DNA of 64,000 bases from Candidatus Dojkabacteria bacterium (GTDB lineage Bacteria; Patescibacteriota; Dojkabacteria; J137): contig JAUZRK010000001.1 in the NCBI GenBank assembly GCA_030950485.1, forward strand, positions 103,998 through 167,997, read 5' to 3'. Below the pieces are notes generated by a model, which saw only the letters and a list, made by a program, of their open reading frames with translations, did not search any database and was not told the DNA's origin. Below, piece after piece: positions 2,922 through 60,966 of this stretch. Made by a program: the position numbers and the translations under genes. The stretch's first letter is position 1. Each line of letters begins with the position of its first letter.

Positions 2922-3284
2922 ATGGTGGACTTTACAAAACTAAACATCTGGATTCGTGCTAAGAATTTATCCGTTGAGATATATAGACTTACAGATGATT
3001 ATCCTAAAATAGAACAATTTGGCATCTCAAATCAAATGAGGCGAGCAGCGACTTCAGTTCCAGCAAATATATCTGAAGGGTGTAGCCGGGATTCTAAAAA
3101 AGATTTTTCTTATTTTTTAAGCATAAGCATTGGTTCACTAAATGAGATCTATACTTTTCTAGAAATCTTCTCAGATCTGAAATATCTACAATTAAGCAAG
3201 AAGAATACACTTATTAAAGAAATTAATGAACTTAAAAGCATGATCTATTCTTATAAAAAAAAACTTAAGACTAAGGAGTCTTAG
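2922..3284 (+). CDS. four-helix-bundle protein (23S rRNA intervening-sequence protein family)
   Basis: 120 aa, residues typical of TIGR02436-like proteins (..GSLNEIYTFLEI..); paralog at 43322-43687. Confidence 0.6.
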   Translation: MVDFTKLNIWIRAKNLSVEIYRLTDDYPKIEQFGISNQMRRAATSVPANISEGCSRDSKKDFSYFLSISIGSLNEIYTFLEIFSDLKYLQLSKKNTLIKEINELKSMIYSYKKKLKTKES

Positions 3285-3324
3285 ATCTTATGTCTTAAAT
3301 CTTATATCTTATATCTTTAAATAA

Positions 3325-6189
3325 ATGGCATTACCAAAAGGAGCTTACAATCCAAAAGAAAATGAACAAACTATACTTGATAGGTGGTTAGAAGCTTGTG
3401 CTTACAAACCCGAATATGATCCAAAGGAGAGCAGAGTAGTTAGTTTTGAGGAAATGAAAAATGATTCAAGAGAGGCGTGGAGTTTAATCTGTCCACCTCC
3501 AAATGCTTACGGAAGACCTCATATTGGAAATATTTCTGGATATGCATATATGGACGTAATGGCGAGATTTCAGAGAATGAATGGGAAAAAAGTTTTAGTT
3601 TTGCCAGGTAAAGACCATGCTGGTCTCGAAGGAGAGGGAGTATTCGTTAGAGAAGTACTTGAAAAGCAAAAAAGAGACAAATTCGACATGAAAAGAGAAG
3701 AGTTCTATTCAGAAATGATGGATTTCTTTGAAAACAATATGGATATTGCTATGAAAGATGAGAAAGAAATTGGACTTTCTGCAGATTTTGATAGAGATAC
3801 TTTTACACTTGACCCTGATATTGTAGAGACTGTTTTAGATACATTTGTTGAAATGTATAACGCAGGAATGATTTATAAGGGGGTTAGATTAATCAACTGG
3901 GATCCAAAGGCCAGAACTGCAGTTGCAGACAATCAAATACTTTATAAGGAATCAAAGACGCCTTTCTTTTATTTTAAGTATATTTATAAAACTGGAGACG
4001 AGAAAAGGGCCATTGAGCTGAAAAATGAATTTGAAGGAAAAGAGCTTGAATGGAACTATGAAAGAAATATGACAAAAGACGGGAAAGAGGATTTAACTTT
4101 TTCATATGGTCATTTGGATAATCTTGAGATTATGGGATATGGATACAGTAACGTCCAATCAGGAGACAAAATCAGGGGTAGAGTAGTGGGCATACAAATG
4201 AGGTTGGATAGTAAATACCGATTAGTGGTTATCCATCCTGACTATTCAGGAGACATCAAAAATGATATTGCTCAAACATTTTTATTCGAAGCAAAGTACT
4301 ACGCTGGAGCACACATTCTTTTATTCGAAGAGAATTCAAATGATTCAGATTATACAAATGGATTTGTAATTGGAACAGTACGACCTGAAACTGTATTTTC
4401 AGACACGGCAATAGCTTGTGATCCAAAAGATGAAAGATACAAAGAATTTGTTGGAAAAGAGGTTGAAGTAGAGTTCTTAGGAGAGAAGAAAAAATTAAAC
4501 TTCATTGCAGATTTTGCAGTTGATAAAGATTTTGGAACAGGTTTACTTAAGGTAACTCCAGCCCATGCAAAAGAAGACTGGGAGATTGCAAGCAGACATC
4601 CTGAAGAATGTTTACCTGCTATTCAGTGTATTAATTATGATTTAACAATGAATCATATATCTGGAGAGAAATATTCTGGTAAAAAGGCAAAACTTGTTAG
4701 AACTGAAATGAGAGAGGATATGTTAAAGAAGGGAAATCTTGTTTACGTTAATGATGAATACGAGAATAAAATACAGGTTGCAGAAAGAACTGAAGCCCCA
4801 ATCGAGCCTTTATTGTCTTCTCAGTGGTATTTAAGATACGACGGTATAAAGGAAGCTACAATTTTAATGGCGTTTAATGAGCATAATGATGATACAAATT
4901 TGGAACAGAGCAGAGAAGAACTGGAAGAGATATTGGAGAAATTCAATTCCGTAGGGGCAAATAATTATTTGCCCCTACGGAACGATTTACCCTTACAGAA
5001 GAGTTTACCTGAACAGAATGAAGATATTGAAACGAGAACAGATTCAAAGGCAACGAACCCGCAACCAGAGACCCATAACTCAGTTCACATACACCCCGAA
5101 ACAATGGTTCCAAAGTTTAATCATTGGATGAATAATTTAAGGGATTGGGCAATTTCAAGAAGTTTATGGTGGGGGTATAGATTGCCGGTTTGGTATTCAG
5201 GAGAGGTTAAGGAGGTTATTGATGAGAATGGACAGGTAAAGGAGTTGATTATGCAAAATGGTACATTTGTTGAATTAGAATATGCTAATCCAGAGCATAT
5301 TAAAGTACAGAAAGAATCACCTGGAGAAAGCTGGATCCAAGACGAAAACGTACTCGACACTTGGTTTAGTTCTGGGCAATGGGTTTATGCGACATTAAGA
5401 AAACATAATTTAATGGATGAATTTTTCCCATCAGACGTTATGGTTTCAGGTTTTGACATAATGGAGAATTGGATTAGTAGGATGATGATGTTTACTTATT
5501 TTAAAGAGAAGTCTATTCCGTTTAAGGATGTATATCTAACAGGATTGGTAAAAGGTACAGATGGACAGAAAATGAGTAAGTCAAAAGGTAACTTAATAAA
5601 CATTGACGAGGTTAGAGAAAAATACGGAACTGACGCGGTTAGAATGGTTTATTATTACCAAAATACTGCTGGTGCTGATTATGCAATGACTTATGAGAAG
5701 CTTGATACATTTAAGAAGTTTGTAAATAAGATTTGGAATGCGAGTAAATTCGTAGAGATGAATGTTGATGGCTCCGAAGGCGTAGGGACAAATAATAATT
5801 TGTCCTTACAAGATTTTCAATTGCCAGAGACAAAAGCCTTATTTAATCACATTCAAGAAATTAAAGAACAGATTACAAAGAATATTGAATCATTCGAGTT
5901 AGGTCATGCAACCTACAACCTTTATCATGGGTTCTGGCATGAATTTGCAGATGTCCATATTGAGGCTGTAAAGAAATATACTTATACTCAAAGAGATAAA
6001 GAAACAGGAGAGATAATTAGTGAGCCAAAGGCTGAAGAAAAAATTGAGGTGGGTAGAGTGTTGCTGTATGCTTTAAAGAATTACCTAAAAATGCTACATC
6101 CATTTATGCCATTTGTAACTCAAAGAATTTGGGATGAGTTAGAAAAGGAAGAGGGGGAGCATGAGTTTTTGATGTATTGCAAGTGGTAA
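3325..6189 (+). CDS. valS: valyl-tRNA synthetase (class I aaRS)
   Basis: 954 aa; HIGN-type motif PHIGNISGYAYMD, KMSKS motif GQKMSKSKGN, editing-domain-sized insert; carries an in-frame palindromic insertion at 4947-4983. Confidence 0.8.
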   Translation: MALPKGAYNPKENEQTILDRWLEACAYKPEYDPKESRVVSFEEMKNDSREAWSLICPPPNAYGRPHIGNISGYAYMDVMARFQRMNGKKVLVLPGKDHAGLEGEGVFVREVLEKQKRDKFDMKREEFYSEMMDFFENNMDIAMKDEKEIGLSADFDRDTFTLDPDIVETVLDTFVEMYNAGMIYKGVRLINWDPKARTAVADNQILYKESKTPFFYFKYIYKTGDEKRAIELKNEFEGKELEWNYERNMTKDGKEDLTFSYGHLDNLEIMGYGYSNVQSGDKIRGRVVGIQMRLDSKYRLVVIHPDYSGDIKNDIAQTFLFEAKYYAGAHILLFEENSNDSDYTNGFVIGTVRPETVFSDTAIACDPKDERYKEFVGKEVEVEFLGEKKKLNFIADFAVDKDFGTGLLKVTPAHAKEDWEIASRHPEECLPAIQCINYDLTMNHISGEKYSGKKAKLVRTEMREDMLKKGNLVYVNDEYENKIQVAERTEAPIEPLLSSQWYLRYDGIKEATILMAFNEHNDDTNLEQSREELEEILEKFNSVGANNYLPLRNDLPLQKSLPEQNEDIETRTDSKATNPQPETHNSVHIHPETMVPKFNHWMNNLRDWAISRSLWWGYRLPVWYSGEVKEVIDENGQVKELIMQNGTFVELEYANPEHIKVQKESPGESWIQDENVLDTWFSSGQWVYATLRKHNLMDEFFPSDVMVSGFDIMENWISRMMMFTYFKEKSIPFKDVYLTGLVKGTDGQKMSKSKGNLINIDEVREKYGTDAVRMVYYYQNTAGADYAMTYEKLDTFKKFVNKIWNASKFVEMNVDGSEGVGTNNNLSLQDFQLPETKALFNHIQEIKEQITKNIESFELGHATYNLYHGFWHEFADVHIEAVKKYTYTQRDKETGEIISEPKAEEKIEVGRVLLYALKNYLKMLHPFMPFVTQRIWDELEKEEGEHEFLMYCKW
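4947..4983. repeat. GC-rich perfect palindrome ttccgtaggggcaaataattatttgcccctacggaa embedded in-frame in valS (encodes SVGANNYLPLRN)
   Basis: perfect inverted repeat; same element recurs in two other genes. Confidence 0.8.
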
Positions 6190-6218
6190 AGTCGAAGATT
6201 TAAGTTTTAAGATATAAG

Positions 6219-6243
6219 AAGGTGCCAAATTTCTTGGCACCTT
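6219..6243. terminator. 10-bp perfect hairpin aaggtgccaa/atttc/ttggcacctt downstream of valS
   Basis: stem-loop directly after the valS stop; weak U-tract. Confidence 0.4.
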
Positions 6244-35582: not shown

Positions 35583-35730
35583 AAAGTAAAAAGTTAGAAG
35601 TAAAAAGTATAAGACGCAGTTATTACCTTACTTACTATGCAATACTTCTTATGTCTTAAATCGTATTTCATAAATCTAGCTTCTTGCCACTTTTTTTATT
35701 TGACTTTTTACTTTTAAATTTTAACTTTTC
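35583..35730. repeat. inverted pair of AT-rich promoter-like repeats (aaagtaaaaagt.. and ttgactttttacttttaaattttaactttt) flanking an 80-bp core
   Basis: same motif family at 45352-45438, 53350-53386 and 53685-53715. Confidence 0.5.
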
Positions 35731-35810
35731 CTCTTAACTTATTTCACTAGTCACTCATCACTTATCGCATATTTCTACCTCTCATCTTAACGCTGTAGTA
35801 TAATCTAGTA

Positions 35811-48930: not shown

Positions 48931-49962
48931 TTGAAAATGACTGAAAAATTAATAAAAAAAATATTAAAAAAATATGGATATGATGTTGTAAAAATATATC
49001 CAGAGCAATCAGGGTATCGTAATAAATCTTATGCGGTTGATGTGATGCATTTGTATGATTCTGTAAGGGCAAAAAATATTTTGCCCCTACAGAGAAAACG
49101 AAATTTGATCCTTTATAAAAATGAGCAAGGAATTATTAAAAAAATACAAAACGCAAACGCAGTTTCAAATTTCCTCGCAGAACAAGGCATTCCATCAAGA
49201 AAATCTCTTGGGAAAATAATTAGGTTGCATGATGAGAAAATAGAAAGATTCGCATGTTTGTACAACTATCTTCCAGGAGAAACCATTTCATGGGAAGCTT
49301 ACAATAAAGAACATATTAAACTATTAGGGAAGGCAATGAGCGATATGCATTTTTATTTAAAGGATTATTCTAAAAAGGATAAGTTGGAAAGTATTGATGA
49401 AATCATTAAAAACCAGGCGAATAAAATGATTCAATATTTTAAAAAAGAGGGTGTTAGAAATGCGATGGTTAGGAAATTGGGATTGATATGTAATATAAAT
49501 TTTATAAACAAATTCGTAGGGGCCGAAAATCTTCGGCCCCTACAAAACATATATTCAGATCAATCTATTCCCCTCCACATGGACCTCGTCCGTAGCAACG
49601 TTCTATTTGATTTAGATAAAAATAAAGACATATTTATTTCAGGAATCATAGATTTCGAAAAAGTAGCAAAGGGAAATCGAATATTTGATATCGCGAGAAC
49701 CTTGGCGTTTCTTCTTGTAGATTGTAAATATAAAGATCCAGTTAAAATTAGGAAATACTTTTTAATAAGTGGATATAAAAAAAGAGAGCTAGAAGATTTA
49801 CCAGATTTAACTCATTTAAACTATTTAATTTACTATTTTTTAACATACGATTTTTATAAATTCTTAAGACATAATCCTTATGAATCATTAAACTCGAATG
49901 AGCATTTTATTCGTACGAAAAACTTTTTACTAAGTAAAAAAATCCTGATAAGCTGTAGTTAA
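48931..49962 (+). CDS. APH/choline-kinase-like phosphotransferase
   Basis: Brenner motif HMDLVRSNVLFD and IIDFEK; carries two in-frame palindromic insertions. Confidence 0.6.
   Translation: MKMTEKLIKKILKKYGYDVVKIYPEQSGYRNKSYAVDVMHLYDSVRAKNILPLQRKRNLILYKNEQGIIKKIQNANAVSNFLAEQGIPSRKSLGKIIRLHDEKIERFACLYNYLPGETISWEAYNKEHIKLLGKAMSDMHFYLKDYSKKDKLESIDEIIKNQANKMIQYFKKEGVRNAMVRKLGLICNINFINKFVGAENLRPLQNIYSDQSIPLHMDLVRSNVLFDLDKNKDIFISGIIDFEKVAKGNRIFDIARTLAFLLVDCKYKDPVKIRKYFLISGYKKRELEDLPDLTHLNYLIYYFLTYDFYKFLRHNPYESLNSNEHFIRTKNFLLSKKILISCS
49061..49092. repeat. palindrome gtaagggcaaaaaatattttgcccctac embedded in-frame in the kinase gene (SVRAKNILPLQR)
   Basis: family A element, one arm mismatch. Confidence 0.7.
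49515..49546. repeat. palindrome gtaggggccgaaaatcttcggcccctac embedded in-frame in the kinase gene (VGAENLRPLQN)
   Basis: family A variant, perfect 12-bp arms. Confidence 0.7.
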
Positions 49963-51177: not shown

Positions 51178-52182
51178 TTGAAAGTAGATAACAAAGTAAC
51201 AGCAAAATTAAATGAACAAGAAAAACAGGAGCTCTATAAAAACGCTAGGGCTAAAGCTTGGTACGATGGGATTTGGCAAACTGTAGGAAAGTGTGTTTTC
51301 TGCGATCTTCGAGATAAATATATTATTCATGAGGAACATGGAATTGTTTTAACTGTAAATATCTACCCGTATATTGACGGTCAAATGCTAGCTGTTCCTA
51401 GAAATCATATTAAATCCCCGAAGGAATTAACTGAAAGACAATGGGAGACAATGAGAAAATTTAGCTATATTGCTAAGAAATTAATAAGAAAGACTCATGG
51501 TCATAAAGGTATGTGGAGCCTACTTAGAGAGGGCGGCATTAATGCTCAGATGAGTGTTTCTGATCATTTACATATGCAATTTATACCCTTCGATAACTCA
51601 GACCTTGCGACATGGAACTACCGTGAGTTAAAGCATACGCCGCTTGAGAATGCTGGACTTTATAAAGAGAACTTTAAGGTTATTCAAAAGAATGCTATTA
51701 AGTTCGATGAGAAATATAGCTCAGGGCAGCTATTAAATTTAATCACGGATTGTATTTTCAAAAATGAAAAAGGTGAAGCGCTTCTAATAAAAAGATGTGA
51801 AGATCATAAAATAGAAGGTTATGATTATTGCTTCCCGGGAGGTCATCTTGATCATGTAGATCAAGGAGTTTTTGGATCACTTTTCGATGAAATGAAAGAA
51901 GAGGTAAATTATTCGATAAAAGAGGAGAGTGTTAAGTTACTCGATTCGAGACTTTCTAAAATCACTTATCTAAATGATTCAAAATATTTAGGAGTCGAGA
52001 TGAAGAATTCTGAAAACGTTTTATGGAATATATACTACTACGATAAAGTAGTTAATTCATCAGAGTTTAAAGCAGGCGATGATGCCGACAGTTTGTATTG
52101 GATAAAAGAAGACGAGGTCGATAAATTCAAAGGTATATCTAAGGAGACTAAAGAAATTTTACATAAGTTTTTTTCACTATGA
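51178..52182 (+). CDS. HIT-superfamily (GalT-like HxHxQ branch) and Nudix-like fusion protein
   Basis: N-terminal CVFCD zinc knuckle and DHLHMQFIP; C-terminal FPGGHLDHVDQGVFGSLFDEMKEEVN Nudix-like box. Confidence 0.5.
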   Translation: MKVDNKVTAKLNEQEKQELYKNARAKAWYDGIWQTVGKCVFCDLRDKYIIHEEHGIVLTVNIYPYIDGQMLAVPRNHIKSPKELTERQWETMRKFSYIAKKLIRKTHGHKGMWSLLREGGINAQMSVSDHLHMQFIPFDNSDLATWNYRELKHTPLENAGLYKENFKVIQKNAIKFDEKYSSGQLLNLITDCIFKNEKGEALLIKRCEDHKIEGYDYCFPGGHLDHVDQGVFGSLFDEMKEEVNYSIKEESVKLLDSRLSKITYLNDSKYLGVEMKNSENVLWNIYYYDKVVNSSEFKAGDDADSLYWIKEDEVDKFKGISKETKEILHKFFSL

Positions 52183-53138
52183 AATTCTTCGACTGGAATG
52201 AATACGCATTTAAAAGTAAGAGTGATATCAAATCATTAAAACCATTGGTGTTTTTAGCCGCTCCGAGGAAATTAAGTGAACAATATGTAGTAAATTTATT
52301 CAAGAGTTATGCTACGAGTTCCAATGTACTTATAGGTATAGCTAAAGAGGACTTTATTAAAGGTTTTGAAGACCAAGAGCAATTTCGTACTTTGAAGCTT
52401 ACTGATATAGAAAATTTTGTCGATAAGGTTCGGAAGTCTAAGGCTAAAGATCGACTGCATTTTATTGAATACTTCCAAGATGATCTAATCCATATTTTAG
52501 AGAAGATACCTTTTAAAAAAGTACTGTTTGTTAACGGGTCATGGAGTAGAGTCTTCCATACAAGGTCTGAATTTTATACTTTGGTAAAAAATAAAATAGA
52601 TTATGAACTAGTCTCTGCGTTTAGTTCGGAAGAAGAGGCGAAAGAGTATTTTAAAAGTATAAAGTCAAAAGTACAAAAAGATACAAAGAAAATTAAAATT
52701 GGACATATATTTAAAGATGATAACGAGGCGTTTGAACTTGTAGATAACATAGCTAAATTCAGTTTTGACAATTCTTTTCAGACCGGAGCAGTCTTAACTA
52801 AGAATAAGAAGTTACTTGCTTATAGTTGGAACAGGGTCGTGCCGTATGAAACGTACGCTTTGTTAAACGGTTATCAAAGAGAAATTCATTTAAGTCCGCC
52901 TAACGATACTAATCATTACGATACTAATCACGCGGAGGTTGAAATGTTAATTAAGGCGAATAAAGAAAATATTGATTTAGCTGGAACGACTCTTTATATA
53001 AATTTATTACCTTGTCCTAGTTGCGCAAGAATGATTTGCAATACTGAAATTTCTGAGATTAAATATAAGATCGATCATAGTGAGGGTTATGCGTTTGATT
53101 TGCTCAAAAAAGCTGGGAAGGAGGTGGAGAGAGTTTAG
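52179..53138 (+). CDS. unknown N-terminal domain fused to a CMP/dCMP-type zinc-dependent cytidine deaminase domain
   Basis: HAEVEML .. PCPSCARMI (H[AC]E..PCxxC) in the C-terminal 140 aa; overlaps the upstream gene by 4 nt. Confidence 0.55.
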   Translation: MKFFDWNEYAFKSKSDIKSLKPLVFLAAPRKLSEQYVVNLFKSYATSSNVLIGIAKEDFIKGFEDQEQFRTLKLTDIENFVDKVRKSKAKDRLHFIEYFQDDLIHILEKIPFKKVLFVNGSWSRVFHTRSEFYTLVKNKIDYELVSAFSSEEEAKEYFKSIKSKVQKDTKKIKIGHIFKDDNEAFELVDNIAKFSFDNSFQTGAVLTKNKKLLAYSWNRVVPYETYALLNGYQREIHLSPPNDTNHYDTNHAEVEMLIKANKENIDLAGTTLYINLLPCPSCARMICNTEISEIKYKIDHSEGYAFDLLKKAGKEVERV

Positions 53139-53469
53139 AGTTATGGGTTTTGGGTTTATAGTGTACTAAAATTTTCGTACATTCTTTAAAAATTTAATCT
53201 GTATTATTCACCTCATAGGGGGATAGAAAACCTAAAGATCTGTATTAATCCGTTTAATCAGTTAAATCTGTGTTCTATTTTCAATGGTCAAATTGAACAC
53301 TGATAAAACTGATCAGTACTGATTCTATTACAATTTGAACAATTTACTTTTGACTTTATATTTTTAACTTTTTACTTTATTTATAGTTAAAGGGATCATT
53401 TAAATGTTTAGTTATAAGCCAACCGGCATACGGGGTTTGATATAGTAAACTAAACAATTCAGCTCTTAA

Positions 53470-53640
53470 AAAAATTAGTGCAATCCCCTCCTACGGAGGG
53501 GTACCCGACAGGGCAGGGAGGGTAGCGAGCATTTAAAAAGCTCTCGAGTCAGGATTTAACATACCCAACCCCTTCCGTATTAGCTACGCTAATCCACCTT
53601 CCCGAAGGGAAGGATTAAAACATAAATACAGAGTGAGACT
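53470..53640. ncRNA. GC-rich structured island upstream of thyA (candidate riboswitch or small RNA), flanked by AT-rich direct repeats
   Basis: hairpins cccctcc/tac/ggagggg, ccttccc/gaa/gggaagg and gtgaga/ctttttt/ctcac; long-range gggagggtagcgagc vs gctacgct..ccaccttccc complementarity. Confidence 0.3.
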
Positions 53641-53719
53641 TTTTTCTCACAACTTTTATTTTAGAATAATTAGGATAATTTGCTTTTGACTTTATACTTT
53701 TAACTTTTTACTTTGCACT

Positions 53720-54673
53720 ATGATCCATCCAGAATACGAATACCTAAAACTTTTAGCGAAGCTTTTAAAAAATGGTAAGGGAAAAAAGACTAGAGGGATA
53801 CATGGAGGGAAATCTCTTTTCGGATATCAAATGCGATTTGATTTTCGACATGGATTTCCAGTTTTAACTACGAAGAAAATGCCTTGGAAGATTATGACGA
53901 GGGAGTTACTTTGGTTCATTTCTGGTTCTTCAAATATTAGGAAGCTACAAGAAAAGGGGATTAAGTATTGGGATGATTTTGCAGATACTGAGGGAAATCT
54001 CGGTCCGGTTTATGGTGTTCAGTGGAGAAAGTGGCCTGCTTTCACGCCTTTAACTCAACCTAAACCTGACTTTTATGCGCACGAGATGAGTGAAACAGAT
54101 TCGTTTAAATCTGATTTTCCTAAGCCTAAATATTGGGTTGATGAGAATGGAGATAAACATGAGTTTGATAATAAAGTTGGTTTGTATCAGAGGACTGAAC
54201 TTGATCAGTTAAAGTGGGCAATTAGTGAGATTAAAAATAATCCCGATTCTAAGGCGATTATTGTTCAAGCTTGGAATACTGCTTACTTAGATTCGATGAG
54301 ATTACCTCCTTGTCATACTATGTTTCAATTCGATGTTACTAAGGGTAAGTTAAGATTACATCTTTATCAAAGAAGCTCTGATGTATTTCTAGGGTTACCG
54401 TTTAATATTACGCAGTACGCTCTTTTATTAGCTATGGTCGCGCACGTTACGGGCTTAGAGGCGAGAGAGTTTGTTGTTAGTATCGGTTCGGCTCTACTTT
54501 ATTATAATCATATTGAGCCTGCGAAGGAGCAGCTTAAAAGAAAACCTTATCCATTCCCAAAACTTTGGTTAAATCCGGAGGTTACGGATATTGATAATTT
54601 TAGCATTAAGGATATAAAGAGGAAGGGGTATGAGGCTCATCCAAGGATTAAGGGGGAGTTGGTAGTGTTATAA
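53720..54673 (+). CDS. thyA: thymidylate synthase ThyA
   Basis: catalytic Cys in LPPCHTMFQF; 317 aa with a typical ThyA insert. Confidence 0.8.
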   Translation: MIHPEYEYLKLLAKLLKNGKGKKTRGIHGGKSLFGYQMRFDFRHGFPVLTTKKMPWKIMTRELLWFISGSSNIRKLQEKGIKYWDDFADTEGNLGPVYGVQWRKWPAFTPLTQPKPDFYAHEMSETDSFKSDFPKPKYWVDENGDKHEFDNKVGLYQRTELDQLKWAISEIKNNPDSKAIIVQAWNTAYLDSMRLPPCHTMFQFDVTKGKLRLHLYQRSSDVFLGLPFNITQYALLLAMVAHVTGLEAREFVVSIGSALLYYNHIEPAKEQLKRKPYPFPKLWLNPEVTDIDNFSIKDIKRKGYEAHPRIKGELVVL

Positions 54674-55046
54674 ATTAAAACGATTAACAACCTAAATTTA
54701 TGAAATACCTTTTGCATCCATAAAATACTGGATTGCATAACTAAAAAGGTGCTACACTTTATATACAACTTAGCTGTTGAACGAATCAAGAGTATTCTTA
54801 CCTCTGCTCTTGTTAATTATCATTTGAATTTTGATCATGTAGTGACTCTGATACTTGATCAGTATTTAAATACTGAATTATTTTATTTATTAATATACTC
54901 TTTATGAAGTATAAAACCAAATCAGAACGAATCCAGCCCTTGGCTCAAAAGCTCTTGCTACTAGCTTATTCAGAGGTTATTCATAAAAATAAAGCTTATA
55001 CAAATACAATTATCCTGAATAAAGCACATCTTACACTCAGTACAGT

Positions 55047-55160
55047 CTCTAGAAATTTACGATTGAAGGGATGTAAAATACAAACCCGGTGCAGTCTCGA
55101 GTGATTTACGACCGAAGGGATGTAAATTGTATCGAGAGGCGGACACCCCCTCCGCTTCGC
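55047..55160. repeat. two tandem copies of a 35-bp unit containing the dyad ATTTAC-N12-GTAAAT, followed by a GC-rich hairpin
   Basis: gtctctagaaatttacgattgaagggatgtaaaat / gtctcgagtgatttacgaccgaagggatgtaaatt. Confidence 0.5.
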
Positions 55161-55175
55161 TCCAGGCACTCGACA

Positions 55176-56615
55176 CTACACTTTTATAATAAGCTTATTA
55201 TAAATATCAATATGCCCCTGGAGCATTTTTCTTAGAGTAAATTTATTCTCAAAGCTATCTCTACAAACGCTCCTATCAACTTGATTAATTTTCTCCATCA
55301 CTTCAACTAACTCATCGACAACCCTAGACTCACCATAATAGAAATCTCTCACCTTCTTCATCTTACTCTCATAATAACTCTTTCTCTTTTCCCGGTCAGA
55401 ATCATTAATAACAAAACCATTTTTCCCATTTTCTATCAGCTCTTTTGTAGCCCCATTATCTAAACCTATAACCGGAGTCCCACATGATAAGGCCTCTATA
55501 GTAACCATTCCAAACGGCTCCTTAAATATAGAAGGTACTAACAACGCCTTAGCATTCCCTAAAAATTTCTGCTTAGCTTTGTCGCCTGAAACGTATCCAA
55601 CGTATTCAACTGTATCATTTAGTTCAGGCGCAATTACAGAATTCCAATATGAATCATTCGACTCATCTGAATAATGCTTTCCTGCAATCTTTAGAGTTAC
55701 GGGTTTCGAGTTTCGGGTTGCGAGTTCCTCATTATATTTTTTTACTGCAGCTATTGCGTAGTGGACCCCTTTTGGTTCAATTATTCTCCCGAGATAAGCA
55801 AAATATTCTGTATCATTTTGGCCAGCAGGAGCAGGACTTGGCTCACCAGCTGGAGATGGGTTGTACCCTGGTCCTAAATATTTTGGCTTAAACCTTTTTT
55901 CATCAATTCCATGATAAACATTCCCAACCCAATTCGTATCATCCGGCATATCTTCTCTTTGAGATAGAGACATTGAGATAAAATTTCTATCTTTATATTT
56001 CGGTAAAATAGTTCGATATTTCGTTAGAAAAGAGTAGGGATCATGATGCGTAAATACAACTGGCTTATTACAAAGCCCGCTCATCTCAAGTGCGATCTGT
56101 TCTTCCAACATGTAAACATGAACAATATCAAACATATCATCATTAGCCATTTCGTAGGCTTTGGCTATTATTTCAGATTGAAAATGTCTAGAGAGAGTAG
56201 TGAACAGTAAGGGATGTTTTTTAAGGAGTTCTTTTAGACCGTAACCCCTAGTTTCCAGTTCTTCTTTCAGTAGGGTTTGGTCTGCGGTGATGTTTTTTAC
56301 GGTAGGGGCAAAATATCTTTTACCTTTACTCTTTTTTGTTGGATCAAAAAATCTTTTGCCCTTACTGTTATCTCGACCAACAACCCCAGGCGAAAACAAC
56401 GTAACCTCAGCTCCTGCCTCGGCAAGACCATTTGCAAGATCAATAGCAAGATCTCCCGGAGAAAATATATTATCAGACATCAATTCATCCGACATAAAAA
56501 TATGCGGACAAACGAATGCAATTCGTATTGGAAAATTAGGGGCTGTCATCTGCTCTCGTAGGGGCAAAATATTTTTTGCCCCTACGGATTCGATTACATT
56601 ATTTTTCTTCCTCAT
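55176..56615 (-). CDS. GT4-family glycosyltransferase with several in-frame repeat insertions
   Basis: EPFGMVTIEALSCGTPVIGLDNG near the C-terminus; family A palindromes at 56293-56368 and 56557-56586; family C repeat at 55694-55726. Confidence 0.6.
   Translation of the reverse strand: MRKKNNVIESVGAKNILPLREQMTAPNFPIRIAFVCPHIFMSDELMSDNIFSPGDLAIDLANGLAEAGAEVTLFSPGVVGRDNSKGKRFFDPTKKSKGKRYFAPTVKNITADQTLLKEELETRGYGLKELLKKHPLLFTTLSRHFQSEIIAKAYEMANDDMFDIVHVYMLEEQIALEMSGLCNKPVVFTHHDPYSFLTKYRTILPKYKDRNFISMSLSQREDMPDDTNWVGNVYHGIDEKRFKPKYLGPGYNPSPAGEPSPAPAGQNDTEYFAYLGRIIEPKGVHYAIAAVKKYNEELATRNSKPVTLKIAGKHYSDESNDSYWNSVIAPELNDTVEYVGYVSGDKAKQKFLGNAKALLVPSIFKEPFGMVTIEALSCGTPVIGLDNGATKELIENGKNGFVINDSDREKRKSYYESKMKKVRDFYYGESRVVDELVEVMEKINQVDRSVCRDSFENKFTLRKMLQGHIDIYNKLIIKV
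56557..56586. repeat. palindrome cgtaggggcaaaatattttttgcccctacgg in-frame in the GT4 gene (ESVGAKNILPLRE)
   Basis: family A element; degenerate copies at 56293-56330 and 56343-56368. Confidence 0.75.
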
Positions 56616-56707
56616 CTAGAAAATCTAGATCTAGTTCATCAGAAAGACCTTCTTCGTTGTAATCGTATGTATCTGTATCAGCCATATTTTTGTTTTAATA
56701 TAAAATA

Positions 56708-57109
56708 TTATAACTTACCCATAAATTGCCAGCAATTTCCTTCAGGATCTTTCCAAGCACAAACATAGACTTGGTTCTCGACAGTAGCAAATGGAGTAAG
56801 TATAGGTTCTTGAATAATTTTACATCCAGTATCTCTAACTTTCTCATACCACTTTTGAACTTCATCTGTATTTAAATTTATCATTCGTCTAAGCGGGTCT
56901 TTAGTCACGCCTTTTATAGAATCATGATGGCCTATCCAAAGAATATTCGTGTCGCTCAGTTTTAAATCATGGCCATAATCTTTTTCTAAACCATCTTTCG
57001 CTGGGATGTCAGTTTTAACTAAATATTCTAGTTCTAAAACATCAGTGTAAGATTTAGCAAGTTCGTCTGGATTCTCGCTCCAGAAAAGAATGTATTTTGA
57101 TTGAAACAT
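56708..57109 (-). CDS. VOC/glyoxalase-family protein (intact paralog of the 10366-10758 pseudogene)
   Basis: 133 aa; WIGHHDSIKGVTKDPLRRM. Confidence 0.5.
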   Translation of the reverse strand: MFQSKYILFWSENPDELAKSYTDVLELEYLVKTDIPAKDGLEKDYGHDLKLSDTNILWIGHHDSIKGVTKDPLRRMINLNTDEVQKWYEKVRDTGCKIIQEPILTPFATVENQVYVCAWKDPEGNCWQFMGKL

Positions 57110-57129
57110 AATTTATTAGCGTAATTAAT

Positions 57130-58611
57130 TTAATCTAACACAATCTCCTCATCAATCTCCGCATTAGGATCTCGATCAACTCGATCAAAGTTATTAAATA
57201 AAACTCCCAGAGACTCTGCTTTATCTTTATTCTCTCTAAGATAATCAAATAGACTTCCCATTTTATTTACCCCGTTTCCTGTTTCTCGACCCAACTCGAT
57301 ACCCGCAACCCGTAACTCACCTCCCGCTACTCCTAACTTAATATTCGCAGCTACTCCAATCATCGCAGCATTATCTCCAGTCAGCTTAGAAGAGTAGGGA
57401 TACTTTAATTTAACATCATTCTTCTTACATAAACTTCTAAATTCTGATCTTAATCTCTTACTTGCAATAACCCCTCCACCAAGCCAAAGTTCACTTGGAT
57501 TATGCTTCTTTATAGCTCTTTCTAATTTAACTTTTAATTGAGTAATTGCCGAAGCTTCAATCATTACGCATAGATCATTTATTTGATCTCCCGATAAGTT
57601 CTTAGTTTCTTTATTAAGTTGATCTTCAATAGTTATCTCATCTTTTACCAATGAATTAGTTAATTCTTTAAAAGCAGTTTTTAAACCTGAAAAACTAAAG
57701 TTAAAATCTCCAGATCTATACATAGGAATTGGAAGAGAGTAGCTAGTGCCACTTTCTTTATTAGTACCTATAACATTTGTGCTTTTATTATTCTTTTTTA
57801 TTTCAATTTTAAATTTCTTTCTTTGATCATCTGCAAACCTACTAACTGTAGGACCTGCAGGATATCCTAATCCAAGCATACGCCCAGCCTTATCGTAATA
57901 TTCTCCACATGAATCATCTAAAGTAACCCCAATTTTTTCGTAATCTCCAATCCCATTTACTTTAATCATTTCCGTATGCCCCCCAGATATAAGAAAGCCC
58001 AGTACTGCTTTTCCTTCCCTTGAGGGAAGGTCCCTGAAAGGGGGATGGGTGATTTGACCATGTTCTTTATCGTGCTTAATTTTTACCTTAGAATTTCTCT
58101 CAACAAAACCAGACAACAAATGCCCTTCCATATGATTAATAATCATCAAAGGCTTATCAAATTTTTCAGCTAAAGCAATGGCCTTTCTAACTCCAACCTC
58201 TAACGCAATAGCTAATCCAGGACCATAAGTAACAGCAACTAAATCGACTTCACTCATATACTTTCTTAAATCACTTTCTTGTGTTTCCCCCTCTCCTGGG
58301 AGAGGGCTGGGCCTGTCCGAAGCTGCTGCATCGTTGCTGGCGGAGTGAGGGATAGCTCTTTTTAAAGCTTCCACCACTACATTATCAATCCTCTCTGTAT
58401 GAGCTAACTTAGCAAGGCTTGGCACAACACCTCCATATTTTTCGTGGTATTTTTGTTGAGAAGGCATTACGCTAGATAGAACAGTAGTACCTCTAACAAT
58501 TGAACAAGATGTTTCATCACAAGATGTATCAATCGCCAAAGTTGTAATTTCGTTTATAGATTTAGAATTCATTAGGTAATTATACCAAATGAAATTAGAT
58601 CGAACCTGCAA
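57130..58611 (-). CDS. tsaD: tRNA N6-threonylcarbamoyladenosine synthase TsaD (Kae1/Gcp), extended by insertions
   Basis: LAIDTSCDETSCSIV and INHMEGHLL motifs; 493 aa vs about 340 typical; contains a family B palindrome (58287-58307) and a family C repeat (57285-57318). Confidence 0.7.
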   Translation of the reverse strand: MQVRSNFIWYNYLMNSKSINEITTLAIDTSCDETSCSIVRGTTVLSSVMPSQQKYHEKYGGVVPSLAKLAHTERIDNVVVEALKRAIPHSASNDAAASDRPSPLPGEGETQESDLRKYMSEVDLVAVTYGPGLAIALEVGVRKAIALAEKFDKPLMIINHMEGHLLSGFVERNSKVKIKHDKEHGQITHPPFRDLPSREGKAVLGFLISGGHTEMIKVNGIGDYEKIGVTLDDSCGEYYDKAGRMLGLGYPAGPTVSRFADDQRKKFKIEIKKNNKSTNVIGTNKESGTSYSLPIPMYRSGDFNFSFSGLKTAFKELTNSLVKDEITIEDQLNKETKNLSGDQINDLCVMIEASAITQLKVKLERAIKKHNPSELWLGGGVIASKRLRSEFRSLCKKNDVKLKYPYSSKLTGDNAAMIGVAANIKLGVAGGELRVAGIELGRETGNGVNKMGSLFDYLRENKDKAESLGVLFNNFDRVDRDPNAEIDEEIVLD

Positions 58612-58639
58612 CTTTTTTATACAAGTTCCAGTATTTATA

Positions 58640-58929
58640 AGCAGTGTTTTGATTTACTCTAACTATTAGTGAGTCATGTGCAATTGGCTCGAAGTCTGAC
58701 TTTTCTGGCTCACCTGTTATACCATTTACTTTTCGATATGTATCAAGTATCTCAAGAATAGAAGTTTCATTTGGCTGAATCGTTATACCTATTAAGTCTA
58801 TCTGTGAGTCCTTTCAAGCTTCTCTCAGAAGGATATTCGTGTCGACCTGAAGGCAATGCACGTGCATAATCCTCTAAACATGTAACCTCATCAATCGTAT
58901 CCTCTCTTTCAAAAATTTTTTTCAGACAT
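58640..58929 (-). pseudogene. decayed small gene (at least two frameshifts, one in an A7 run at 58916-58922)
   Basis: reading across frames gives MSEK|KIFEREDTIDEVTCLEDYARALPSGRHEYPSERSLKGLTDRLNRYNDSAK|PNETSILEILDTYRKVNGITGEPEKSDFEPIAHDSLIVRVNQNTAYKYW.. Confidence 0.4.
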
Positions 58930-59182
58930 ATTACTAATTCTTAAACGCTGAATTATAGCATCAAACTACTATCCCATTGCAAATTCAAACATTAGCGCAG
59001 TATCAAGTGCTTTTCGAGAGAAACGAGAAAAATGTATCGAGATACGGGAACAGAGTTATTCTCTATCCCTACTTCTCATTTCAAGCCTTGTCCAGCACTT
59101 GCCCCTCAACCCTAGTCTCTAGTCTCTAGTCTCTAATCACCAATATTATGATAAAATACACGATCAATATTAAAAAGATCAC

Positions 59183-59644
59183 ATGTCTAAATGCCTAGTC
59201 CTATATGGGACACTAACAATGAATACAGAAATAGTTGCGGAGAAGCTACACGAAGCTGTTGGTGAATTAGGTGTATTTGATGAATTAGAATTGATGAATA
59301 TGATTGAAATAACTGATACCTCTATTCTTGAAAGCTATGATTTTATTATAGTAGGTACTTCTACTTGGGGAGAAGGAGATTATAATCCGGATACAGATGA
59401 ATTTATTTATTTGCTTGAAGAGCAAAATCCCAATTTAGAAGGTAAGCCTTATTCAATTTTTGGACTTGGCGAAATTTCTTATGATGATTATTGCGGTGCT
59501 GCTAAAAATTTAGACAGAATGTTTTCAGATGATTTCAAAATGGTAAAAAAAGGTGAGTTATTTACTATTGATGGATATCCTGAATACGAGATATTAGAAC
59601 TGGTAAGAACCTGGATTAATACTATCTTAGAATCAAATATATAG
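59183..59644 (+). CDS. flavodoxin
   Basis: CLVLYGTLTMNTE flavodoxin signature and IIVGTSTWGEGD. Confidence 0.7.
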   Translation: MSKCLVLYGTLTMNTEIVAEKLHEAVGELGVFDELELMNMIEITDTSILESYDFIIVGTSTWGEGDYNPDTDEFIYLLEEQNPNLEGKPYSIFGLGEISYDDYCGAAKNLDRMFSDDFKMVKKGELFTIDGYPEYEILELVRTWINTILESNI

Positions 59645-59646
59645 AA

Positions 59647-59847
59647 TTATTTAGACCCAAAAATCCTAATTGCTACGTATATTCCAAAAGAAGAAAACAT
59701 TAAGAAGAATGTTGTAAGTAATGCTTTCCCTACTACGTCACCGTCAACTACTCCCCAGATTCCTAGAACTACAATAAATGCACTAATAACTAATACAGAA
59801 ATTATAGTTAAACCCAATGCTTTTCTCATTTTTTGTAATGAAGTCAT
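59647..59847 (-). CDS. small membrane protein
   Basis: 66 aa, two TM helices. Confidence 0.35.
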   Translation of the reverse strand: MTSLQKMRKALGLTIISVLVISAFIVVLGIWGVVDGDVVGKALLTTFFLMFSSFGIYVAIRIFGSK

Positions 59848-59862
59848 ATTTATATTTTTAAA

Positions 59863-60438
59863 CTATAAATTTATTATATCATTTATCAGTTCAGGATAAT
59901 CATATCCATGGTCGAAAGCTTCAGTTTCTATTAATTCAATGTTTTTAAATTCACCAAATTGCTCATTTATAAATTCAAAACTTCCTAATGGATCATTTGA
60001 ATTCTGAATGATAGTTATTTCTAATTTTGTTTTTCCAAGAACCTGCTTATATTTTTCTAACCTCTCATTTTTAGAATCTTCCTCCCAATTCTGAATCGGC
60101 AATCCCATAAAAACAACTTTATCAATCTGTTCTTCATAATCCTCAATCAGATTCAAAGAGAGTAGCGTCCCAATCGACTTAGCAACTATACTGTATTTCT
60201 CCCTCTCTTGGGAGAGGTCCGGGGTGAGGGTTTTCGGCACGATACCAAATTTATCACTCATCTCCTTCTCAATAACCCCCAACTCATAACTCCCTACCCA
60301 AGACTCATAACTCACATCATCCCATTTCCTCCATCTATGTTTAATTACATTATGTCCAGATTCCTCCAAAGCATCAGTAACTGATTTCCATTCTGCTTCG
60401 TTGTATATACCTTGTCCTGGTAGATAGAGTATGTTCAT
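59863..60438 (-). CDS. alpha/beta-hydrolase-like serine esterase with an in-frame family B palindrome insertion
   Basis: nucleophile elbow IVAKSIG; palindrome ccctctcttgggagagg (60199-60218) encodes DLSQERE. Confidence 0.45.
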   Translation of the reverse strand: MNILYLPGQGIYNEAEWKSVTDALEESGHNVIKHRWRKWDDVSYESWVGSYELGVIEKEMSDKFGIVPKTLTPDLSQEREKYSIVAKSIGTLLSLNLIEDYEEQIDKVVFMGLPIQNWEEDSKNERLEKYKQVLGKTKLEITIIQNSNDPLGSFEFINEQFGEFKNIELIETEAFDHGYDYPELINDIINL

Positions 60439-60468
60439 ATTATTTTAATTTATTCCAATATTCATTTT

Positions 60469-60966
60469 TTATATATTTCTGATCTTTGTACTTTGAATCA
60501 GAGATTTTTTTGCAATTAGCTTTGCGTCTTCTAAATACCTTTCTGTATAAACTCCTCTTATAACCGAGAGCATCATTAGCTTTTCCAAACTAATAACCAA
60601 AAAATCTTTTTCATCTAAAGCATTATCTTTTAATTCATCGTATCCAAAAAGCATAATACTATCCCAAAGTTCAAATTCATAAATTAAAATTCCATGATCT
60701 CCAAAAAGATCTGAGAATTGCGATTTTTCTTTAAAACCAGATTTATGTGGCTCTTCTAAAATATCTGCCTCATCAATCAATTTTTTAGAAAGTTCTAAAT
60801 GATCCCTTCTTATAAGAATCATGTCTATATCTTTATCCGATTCTCTAAGCTCATGATACATCATTGCAACTCCTGAAACTAAAAGTGGCTTATCCTTAAA
60901 TTTAAAATCTAATTTTGAAAGATTTATAAACTTCAGTGCTTTTTGTTTAAGATTTTTCTCATTCAT
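60469..60966 (-). CDS. minimal nucleotidyltransferase (pol-beta-like NTase fold)
   Basis: VSGVAMMYHELRESDKDIDMIL (GS..DxD). Confidence 0.45.
   Translation of the reverse strand: MNEKNLKQKALKFINLSKLDFKFKDKPLLVSGVAMMYHELRESDKDIDMILIRRDHLELSKKLIDEADILEEPHKSGFKEKSQFSDLFGDHGILIYEFELWDSIMLFGYDELKDNALDEKDFLVISLEKLMMLSVIRGVYTERYLEDAKLIAKKSLIQSTKIRNI

Follow-up and report, generated by a model that had tools for sequence, protein, structure and literature searches.

Does a short repeat found in two genes tie these genes together, or does it belong to something wider in the genome? This question is raised by a locus in a 64-kb window (64,000 nucleotides of contig JAUZRK010000001.1, analysed together with about 4.5 kb of flanking contig) from one Dojkabacteria genome of the candidate phyla radiation (CPR/Patescibacteria). 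The GC content of the window is about 32%. An earlier note had described a repeat shared by the gene of a GT4-family glycosyltransferase and by tsaD, which encodes tRNA N6-adenosine threonylcarbamoyltransferase. On re-reading the window, we found its coordinates, the 12-mer identity, the encoded peptides and the tandem NCGRGTT/GRGTTNN structure to be right. Both genes carry members of a family of imperfect heptanucleotide arrays, and we think that these arrays probably arose at the DNA level.

The shared stretch belongs to a family of heptanucleotide arrays

The GT4 stretch at 55694-55726 reads GAGTTACGGGTTTCGAGTTTCGGGTTGCGAGTT on the + strand. The tsaD stretch at 57285-57318 reads CTCGACCCAACTCGATACCCGCAACCCGTAACTC on the same strand, and its reverse complement is GAGTTACGGGTTGCGGGTATCGAGTTGGGTCGAG. 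The two stretches share the exact 12-mer GAGTTACGGGTT in inverted orientation and are alike at 23 of 29 positions in an ungapped alignment. The peptide from the GT4 stretch, where the array is antisense to the coding strand, is ELATRNSKPVTLK; the peptide from the tsaD stretch, where the array lies on the coding strand, is GELRVAGIELGRE. At 55690-55726, Tandem Repeats Finder (TRF) reported both a period of 7 (5.3 copies) and a period of 14 (2.6 copies, 86% matches). The significance of the pair was evaluated by composition-weighted scoring against Markov-simulated 64-kb windows. The pair scored 38 bits, ranked 11 among all pairs of the window and was matched in 0-10% of the simulated windows, and the window holds 1587 pairs of identical 12-mers overall. 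Taken as a lone pair, the similarity is marginal.

The whole window was then searched with the 19-nt pattern (GRGTTNN)x2.7, with up to 1-2 mismatches allowed. The search returned 13 overlapping matches at five loci, compared with 0.05 expected, and the arrays at 53131-53158 and 60272-60313 matched with 0 mismatches. Two patterns that were picked post hoc were also enriched in the window: the shared 12-mer with at most one mismatch (4 matches versus 0.08 expected) and GRGTTNCGRGTT (5 matches versus 0.05 expected). The motif GAGTTAY-GRGT was present in all five arrays. The arrays are as follows.

55694..55728, + strand: GT4 array, GAGTTAC GGGTTTC GAGTTTC GGGTTGC GAGTTCC; 5 units, antisense to the gene, encoding ELATRNSKPVTL
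57285..57325, - strand: tsaD array, (GGGAGGT) GAGTTAC GGGTTGC GGGTATC GAGTTGG GTCGAG; on the coding strand, encoding GGELRVAGIELGRE
53131..53158, + strand: dCMP-deaminase array, GAGTTTA GAGTTAT GGGTTTT GGGTTTA; 0 mismatches, also obtained from the lag-7 scan
60272..60313, - strand: array of the hydrolase-like open reading frame (ORF), GAGTTAT GAGTCTT GGGTAGG GAGTTAT GAGTTGG GGGTTAT; six units on the coding strand
5056..5081, - strand: weaker, probable member, GAGTTAT GGGTCTC TGGTTGC GGGTT; 2 mismatches to the 19-nt pattern
59101..59147, - strand: array in the intergenic DNA that separates tsaD from the flavodoxin gene, possibly related to the family; reverse complement, (GAGACTA)x3 followed by GGGTTGA GGG

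Their host genes are listed below.

52179..53138, + strand: dCMP/cytidine deaminase-domain protein, with its stop codon inside the array
55176..56549, - strand: GT4-family glycosyltransferase (Pfam PF00534, E=6.5e-26)
57130..58572, - strand: tsaD, 480 aa, start codon ATG at 58572 (Pfam PF00814, E=2.6e-59)
59863..60438, - strand: alpha/beta-hydrolase-like protein, 191 aa

The similarity was therefore not a chance likeness of two sites alone: further independent arrays occur at 53131-53158, at 60272-60313 and, in weaker form, at 5056-5081. Since the family extends over five loci, it is real, which bears out the earlier note on this point. The GT4 gene and tsaD are both members, but the family is not theirs alone, as the window holds at least four and probably five arrays. 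Four of the five GRGTT arrays fall inside 7.1 kb (P=0.02).

The copies had also been called in-frame. The ORFs are indeed unbroken by the arrays inside them, but three arrays run in the sense and two in the antisense direction of transcription, and all three codon phases are represented, so that no fixed frame exists. A heptanucleotide unit passes through every reading frame in any case; the term has little meaning here and says merely that the ORF is not broken. With regard to intergenic copies, four of the five GRGTT arrays lie inside ORFs. The remaining one, the dCMP-deaminase array, overlies the final codons of the gene together with its TAG stop (53136-53138) and runs on into intergenic DNA. 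The array at 5056..5081 is antisense within a 954-aa ORF (3325..6189) and encodes NPQPETHNS. The 42 nt of the hydrolase array correspond to 14 codons, which encode VSYESWV GSYELGV. For the intergenic array at 59101..59147, the terminal GGGTTGA unit is the sole feature that points to a possible kinship with the GRGTT family. At 59112-59135, in the divergent intergenic region of tsaD and the flavodoxin gene, TRF found a perfect (CTAGTCT)x3.4 array. It is the sole perfect heptad array in the window and, being perfect, the one likeliest to slip.

The periodicity is imposed on the nucleotides

The arrays inside ORFs are rich in rare synonymous codons, including CTC, CGG, CGA, TCG, CCC and ACC (relative frequencies of 0.04, 0.02, 0.08, 0.06, 0.08 and 0.07, respectively) as well as GCG. 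In codon usage, the GT4 array ranked among the lowest 0.23% of ORF windows of equal length, and the tsaD array among the lowest 0.67%. We performed a resampling test in which synonymous codons were redrawn for unchanged peptides, and the lag-7 identity and the core matches were scored. For the GT4 array, the observed lag-7 identity had a P of 1.5e-4, and its 25 of 25 core matches were reached in 0 of 20,000 resamples. The corresponding values for lag-7 identity and core matches were P=5e-3 and P=4.5e-4 for the tsaD array and P=1e-3 and P=5e-5 for the hydrolase array, so that P ranged across the arrays from 5e-3 down to <5e-5. In an alignment of six copies, the likeness was confined to the heptads and ended at the array borders, and the flanks were unrelated. 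No identical adjacent units occur in the GT4 or the tsaD array. The peptides do not account for the periodicity, which is a property of the nucleotide sequence.

Period 7 itself stands out. When array periodicity was sought across the whole window at lags 6-15 without a preset unit, seven strong arrays were found at lag 7 versus 0.2 expected, and no strong arrays were found at lag 6 or at lags 8-15. In five other Dojkabacteria loci (75.6 kb), lag 7 gave 7 arrays, while lags 5, 6, 8 and 9 gave 0, 1, 0 and 0, respectively. Period 7 is thus special both in the source genome and in other Dojkabacteria. Further heptad units of the window are TCTTANN/TAAGANN, AAAGTNN/ACTTTNN and CTAGTCT; their arrays are mostly intergenic, and several stand immediately 5' of start codons. 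The AT-rich arrays among them (TCTTANN, ACTTTNN and TAAGANN) are intergenic and lie at 3277-3323, 53679-53719, 35696-35732, 6191-6222 and 2697-2777. Two AT-rich arrays stand in sense orientation immediately 5' of the ATG at 3325 and of the thyA ATG at 53720, where no Shine-Dalgarno sequence is visible. AT-rich sets also form inverted pairs at 2708-2755/3270-3317 and at 35569-35608/35689-35728.

The arrays lie in insertions and lengthened loops of the host proteins

The tsaD array had been placed by the earlier note in a C-terminal extension of TsaD. This was wrong. Alignment with 25 homologues shows that the array occupies an insertion specific to this lineage. The insertion lies in a hypervariable loop that has the conserved DNAAMIGVAAN helix on one side and F..IDRDP.L, a conserved C-terminal motif, on the other, and in the AlphaFold2 (AF2) model this loop has a predicted local distance difference test (pLDDT) score below 50. 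The hydrolase array lies within an 18-residue insertion that is missing from all 6 of 6 homologues, and residues 37-76 of the hydrolase-like protein have a pLDDT below 50. The GT4 array overlies a native inter-domain loop and the strand N..TLKIAGKHY; here the loop has 15 residues, compared with 11 in most homologues (3-4 residues longer), and it is grouped with the TsaD and hydrolase loops as a low-confidence region of the AF2 models. Judged from these alignments and models, the arrays map to lineage-specific insertions or to lengthened loops of low model confidence.

Other repeat-derived insertions were observed in the same proteins. TsaD carries two in-frame inserts, at 58258-58353 and 57997-58068, with a GC-rich hairpin, CCCTCTCC-CAGG-AGAGGGGG, that encodes PSPLPGEGE and a second hairpin, CCTTCCC-TCAA-GGGAAGG, that encodes LPSREGK. 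Both inserts are lineage-specific and have a pLDDT below 50 in the AF2 model, and in related TsaD genes these loops hold different inserts, which derive from hairpins or repeats. A family of palindromes resembling repetitive extragenic palindromic (REP) sequences, GTAGGGGCAAA..TTTGCCCCTAC, occurs at 4951-4978, 49063-49090, 49516-49543 and 56558-56585. Two degenerate copies (56302-56329 and 56338-56365) lie in frame in the GT4 gene and encode KGKRFF..KGKRYF, an insertion missing from homologues. One palindrome copy stands just 5' of the likely GT4 start, and the annotated GT4 ORF is 22 codons too long: its true start is likely the ATG at 56549, since the longer ORF to 56615 crosses the palindromic repeat.

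Heptad arrays in relatives and in other phyla

The nearest GT4 orthologue, P0122 (JGI Ga0163144), is 50-54% identical, and the DHFR of the same organism is 35% identical. At the same GT4 site and in the same orientation, it carries the array GAGTTAA TAGTTTA GAGTTCC GAGTTCG GAGTTTA, and such an array was found in 0 of 78 other homologous loci. The two GT4 arrays differ at 3 of 25 core positions and at 6 of 10 spacer positions. Third-codon positions within the cores were identical at 7 of 9 sites, compared with 0.43-0.45 gene-wide, a contrast that comes from one orthologous pair (P about 0.05).

For tsaD, the closest homologue (P0002, 56% identity) had no array, and no lag-7 repeats were found in its 16 kb. 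The tsaD of P0044 carries (AAGAATG)x6.3 and (GAAAAAA)x3.7 in the same C-terminal loop as the array of the window, and the tsaD of P0022, whose product is 90% identical to that of P0044, holds only two units there (AAGAATT AAGAAT) and is 16 residues shorter. Copy-number change among relatives was thus seen in this loop for the AAGAATN unit, which is a unit other than GRGTT. In the tsaD of P0019, (GGAAGCT)n and an inverted (GCTTCCA)n are perfectly complementary over 18 nt, are separated by 556 nt and both lie in frame in the ORF. In this clade, loops of conserved proteins are thus extended again and again by heptad arrays, which turn over quickly and are built from a unit specific to each genome. 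The units of other genomes are AAGAATN, GGAAGCT and ATACCAA.

Between the tsaD genes of two 90%-identical Dojkabacteria (L205 versus L207), nearly all protein differences are three loop indels, all of them nucleotide repeats: a GC-rich hairpin versus a period-14 AT-rich array, a 32-aa GC-rich insert, and the heptad expansion. The inverted pair of (GGAAGCT)n and (GCTTCCA)n, with its 18-nt complementarity and 556-nt spacing, lies in the tsaD of GCA_034680565.1 (L206 6380-6404 and 6961-6985). The CPR-like metagenome contig Ga0334888_1007335 (L177 537-6437) carries seven (ATACCAA/ATACTAA)n arrays within 8.4 kb and so represents a further genome in which one heptad unit of its own dominates.

No GRGTT arrays were found in 508 kb of other CPR loci, where heptad arrays of any unit were few. 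A scan with (GRGTTNN)x4 against 185,579 genomes gave at least 120 stretches, and the source genome was not among the matches listed; the scan is uninformative on whether the GRGTT core is special, because the pattern itself imposed the core. Among the matches listed were Cyanobacteria, Bacteroidota, Planctomycetota, Verrucomicrobiota, Acidobacteriota and one Peregrinibacterium. Among the same matches, some arrays, such as GAGTTTCGGGTTTCGAGTTTCGGGTTTCGAGTT in L115, were nearly identical to those of the window, about a third (48 of 135) lay inside long open frames, and several loci held close inverted array pairs.

Origin of the arrays

The arrays are a lineage-specific family of imperfect heptanucleotide repeats, (GRGTTNN)3-6. 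We consider it probable, and no more than that, that they were generated by DNA-level slippage or local copying and fixed in loops that tolerate them. A heptad would be amplified by slipped-strand replication in a 7-nt register, by short-patch copying from a nearby array, or by both. Within genes, a product would survive only if it altered the length by a net multiple of 3 nt and lay in a surface loop able to accommodate additional residues. The protein would read through the array and thereby acquire a 7-residue peptide periodicity and rare codons; it would merely tolerate the array, which presumably has no function at the protein level. The 12-nt identity between the GT4 gene and tsaD would represent the shared unit GAGTTAY-GRGTT, probably as a result of local copying between neighbouring arrays, which would explain both the clustering of the arrays and why this pair is the most similar one. 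We infer that the identity signals no functional link between the two genes.

Several points weigh against an origin by slippage and copying alone. The units within one array differ, and recent whole-unit slippage is not visible. Mismatches pile up on 1-2 heptad positions (78% versus 62% under random placement, P<2e-4), a pattern closer to a conserved core between free spacers than to even decay. Slippage alone leaves the use of one unit per genome unexplained. The retention of the GT4 array at 50-54% protein identity is, in this small sample, suggestive of something other than neutral persistence, with which it is hard to square. These points lead to the alternative that the arrays are selected cis-elements, in which binding sites in a 7-nt register (5-nt core, 2-nt spacer) are overlaid on the coding sequence and maintained by selection. 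The putative reader would be a multimerising nucleic-acid-binding protein, such as a cold-shock/OB-fold protein that binds single strands, or a nucleoid protein that binds the DNA duplex. This is unlikely in our view, though several points speak for it: inside the arrays the core is conserved and the spacer variable, the differences from the distant P0122 orthologue fall mostly in spacers, rare codons are retained in both species, and each genome has its own preferred unit. The AT-rich heptads directly 5' of start codons in sense orientation also recall the TAACTGA repeats and CspB heptamers treated in PMC4679880. An RNA-level role, however, fits poorly with arrays in both orientations to transcription, the case for conservation comes from one orthologous pair with small counts (7/9 versus 0.45), whole-array indels between close relatives imply fast turnover, and no candidate binding protein was identified. 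A stronger form, in which a host factor reads the signal, rare codons and 7-residue peptide repeats are forced on the genes, and arrays are kept at orthologous sites across deeply diverged Dojkabacteria, is slightly more doubtful still.

The other explanations fared worse than the proposed slippage and copying. Chance resemblance of two GC-rich stretches in an AT-rich genome would agree with the pair score and with the abundance of identical 12-mers, but three more loci carry independent arrays of this unit, each of the two copies is itself periodic, an orthologue carries an array at the same GT4 site, and the peptide-conditioned resampling gave P<=1e-3; on these grounds it was rejected as scarcely credible. 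We regard as very unlikely a mobile element, or one like REP sequences or Rickettsia palindromic elements (RPE), that inserts in frame. The tsaD and hydrolase arrays do coincide with insertions relative to homologues, and the in-frame GC-rich hairpin and palindrome insertions in the same genes indicate that the genome tolerates such invasion. The arrays, however, have a G/T-rich strand without self-complementarity, defined termini or shared flanks, and vary in length; the GT4 array overlays native sequence with no clean insertion, and in relatives an array grows in situ from a 2-unit seed. A mobile palindromic element was accordingly rejected for lack of palindrome or hairpin potential and of conserved ends. 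Contingency repeats, in which one-unit slippage switches genes in the manner of neuO (AAGACTC)n or of the hmw promoters, have an in-ORF heptad precedent in neuO (PMC13001214), to whose unit the hydrolase unit GAGTCTT is the reverse complement. The units of our arrays are nevertheless imperfect, only 4-6 in number and without identical neighbours in the GT4 gene or tsaD, and tsaD is a near-universal housekeeping gene; phase variation was rejected as highly improbable because neither of these two genes has a run of identical units long enough to slip. A functional inverted pair would make the tsaD and GT4 arrays a long-range RNA helix on one putative transcript or DNA inverted repeats for recombination. 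The duplex is predicted at -38 kcal/mol, against the -22 +/- 4 that random windows reach with their best partners, the P0019 tsaD has its own complementary heptad pair, and close inverted array pairs occur at several loci of other phyla among the matches listed and also in Xanthomonas (PMC4692102). Such a pair is quite improbable all the same, given that the arms are 1.6 kb apart and co-transcription is putative, none of the remaining GRGTT arrays has a partner of this kind, the GT4 orthologue keeps its array with no tsaD adjoining in a 13-kb locus, and inversion would wreck both genes. G-quadruplex repeats such as GGGAATC (Xanthomonas) or GGGGAYT (Nostoc) are documented to fold (PMC4692102), and four GGG tracts occur on the G-rich strand of the tsaD array. 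The tsaD loops, however, are 10, 4 and 9 nt long, the GT4 and dCMP-deaminase arrays have two GGG tracts each, and GAG alternates with GGG. Four G3 tracts with short loops were not present in these arrays, and on this sequence basis the explanation was rejected as having hardly any likelihood.

Other features of the region

The neighbouring gene of the dCMP-deaminase gene and the other genes of the region are as follows.

53720..54673, + strand: thyA
Other genes of the region: a glyoxalase-fold gene and a flavodoxin gene

The 580-nt intergenic region at 53139-53719, between the dCMP-deaminase gene and thyA, contains several GC-rich hairpins (CCCCTCC-TAC-GGAGGGG, CCTTCCC-GAA-GGGAAGG) and a terminator-like hairpin at 53633-53650. 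Direct repeats of 57 nt (53322-53378/53658-53714), which carry TTGACT and (ACTTTNN)n heptads, flank the region. The fold z-scores of the region were -3.9 (+) and -3.4 (-), with no Rfam match, and it is a candidate for an unclassified non-coding RNA with its own promoter-like repeat. A 43-nt direct repeat (55035-55077/55084-55126; 81% identity, 49 nt start-to-start) lies between thyA and the GT4 3' end, with a GC-rich stretch after it. A small, highly acidic short ORF, MADTDTYDYNEEGLSDELDLDFLDEEEK, is present at 56600-56687 (-), between the glyoxalase-fold gene and the GT4 gene.

In the whole window, no Rfam family was found at the gathering threshold and no tRNAs were found; at E<=1, the stretch 53100-55200 gave a chance-level Rfam match only. 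Scans for sigma-70 promoters and terminators over 52900-60600 showed no enrichment and no site linked to the arrays.

Significance

Among the long simple repeats of prokaryotes, those with a heptanucleotide unit form the commonest class. The present analysis adds a case from the CPR, namely Dojkabacteria, in which heptad arrays occur in conserved housekeeping genes such as tsaD and offer a route to lengthen protein loops from the DNA side. It also provides a clean demonstration that the periodicity is set by nucleotides rather than peptides, as well as a hint, from the mismatch pattern and one orthologue-shared array, of a conserved 5-nt core with drifting spacers. For annotation, the arrays explain a number of unusual lineage-specific insertions and patches of rare codons in this genome, and caution is needed, as the shared 12-mer gives no ground for a specific relationship between GT4 and TsaD. 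If the reading of the arrays as a selected signal were true, the heptanucleotide excess of bacteria would be functional and not purely mutational, and small CPR genomes would be a tractable case.

Comparison with known repeat systems

Rickettsia palindromic elements are 100-150-nt palindromes of conserved sequence that enter conserved genes in frame, at positions that encode surface loops. The arrays of the window resemble them as nucleotide-level repeats in frame in the loops of conserved genes. They differ in that the Rickettsia elements are palindromic, whereas our arrays are non-palindromic tandem repeats without defined ends.

In E. coli K1, the (AAGACTC)n repeat of neuO lies within the ORF, is phase-variable and is read when the number of units is divisible by 3 (PMC13001214). 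In common with our arrays, it is a heptad repeat in a coding region that is translated as a 7-residue repeat and keeps the frame at unit numbers divisible by 3, and its unit is the reverse complement of GAGTCTT in the hydrolase array. The neuO repeat, however, has 3-53 perfect units in the 5' coding region and is phase-variable, whereas the arrays of the window are short, imperfect and internal and lie in housekeeping genes. The heterogeneous heptamer repeats GGGAATC of Xanthomonas and GGGGAYT of Nostoc form G-quadruplexes (Rehm 2015, PMC4692102). Like our arrays, they keep a core while other positions of the heptad vary, form inverted pairs now and then, and differ in length among related genomes, but they are intergenic and fold into G-quadruplexes, and most arrays of the window lack four G-tracts.

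TAACTGA direct repeats have been described in marine Beggiatoaceae, Cyanobacteria and Bacteroidetes (MacGregor 2015, PMC4679880), with proposed binding of S1, Csp or CsrA (PMC4679880); that paper also quotes that CspB binds one protein per heptamer. Like the arrays of the window, they form short sets (2-6 heptads) with a genome-specific unit, and their reverse complement, (CAGTTAT)n, is one base off the GAGTTAT unit of the window. They are overwhelmingly intergenic and point to a downstream start codon, whereas the GRGTT arrays are mostly intragenic and occur in both orientations. The AT-rich heptads near start codons in the window are like the TAACTGA repeats beside start codons and the CspB-preferred heptamers quoted there.

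Heptanucleotide repeats as a whole are the most abundant class of long simple sequence repeats (LSSR), for which polymerase slippage has been proposed as the source (Mrazek 2007, as given in PMC4679880 and PMC4692102). The short tandemly repeated repetitive sequences (STRR) of heterocystous cyanobacteria occur also inside the RNase P RNA gene (Mazel 1990; Vioque 1997; both through PMC2858038). Heptanucleotide repeats of Dojkabacteria had no earlier description in the literature searched. LSSR/STRR differ from our arrays in being mostly intergenic and at times long and perfect, whereas those of the window have 3-6 imperfect units, are mostly intragenic and reside in a CPR host. The mainly intergenic location does not apply to the GRGTT arrays (4/5 in ORFs), although the AT-rich heptad arrays of the window are intergenic; because 48 of the 135 listed GRGTT arrays of other phyla also lie in long open frames, this location is a tendency of heptad repeats and not a strict criterion. 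Shared with this class are a head-to-tail 7-nt unit, many arrays of one or a few units per genome (dispersed beyond chance within the window), a preference for period 7, a sporadic, lineage-specific distribution with a genome-specific unit, and tolerance in functional genes. The arrays of the window belong to this described class of heptanucleotide simple repeats.

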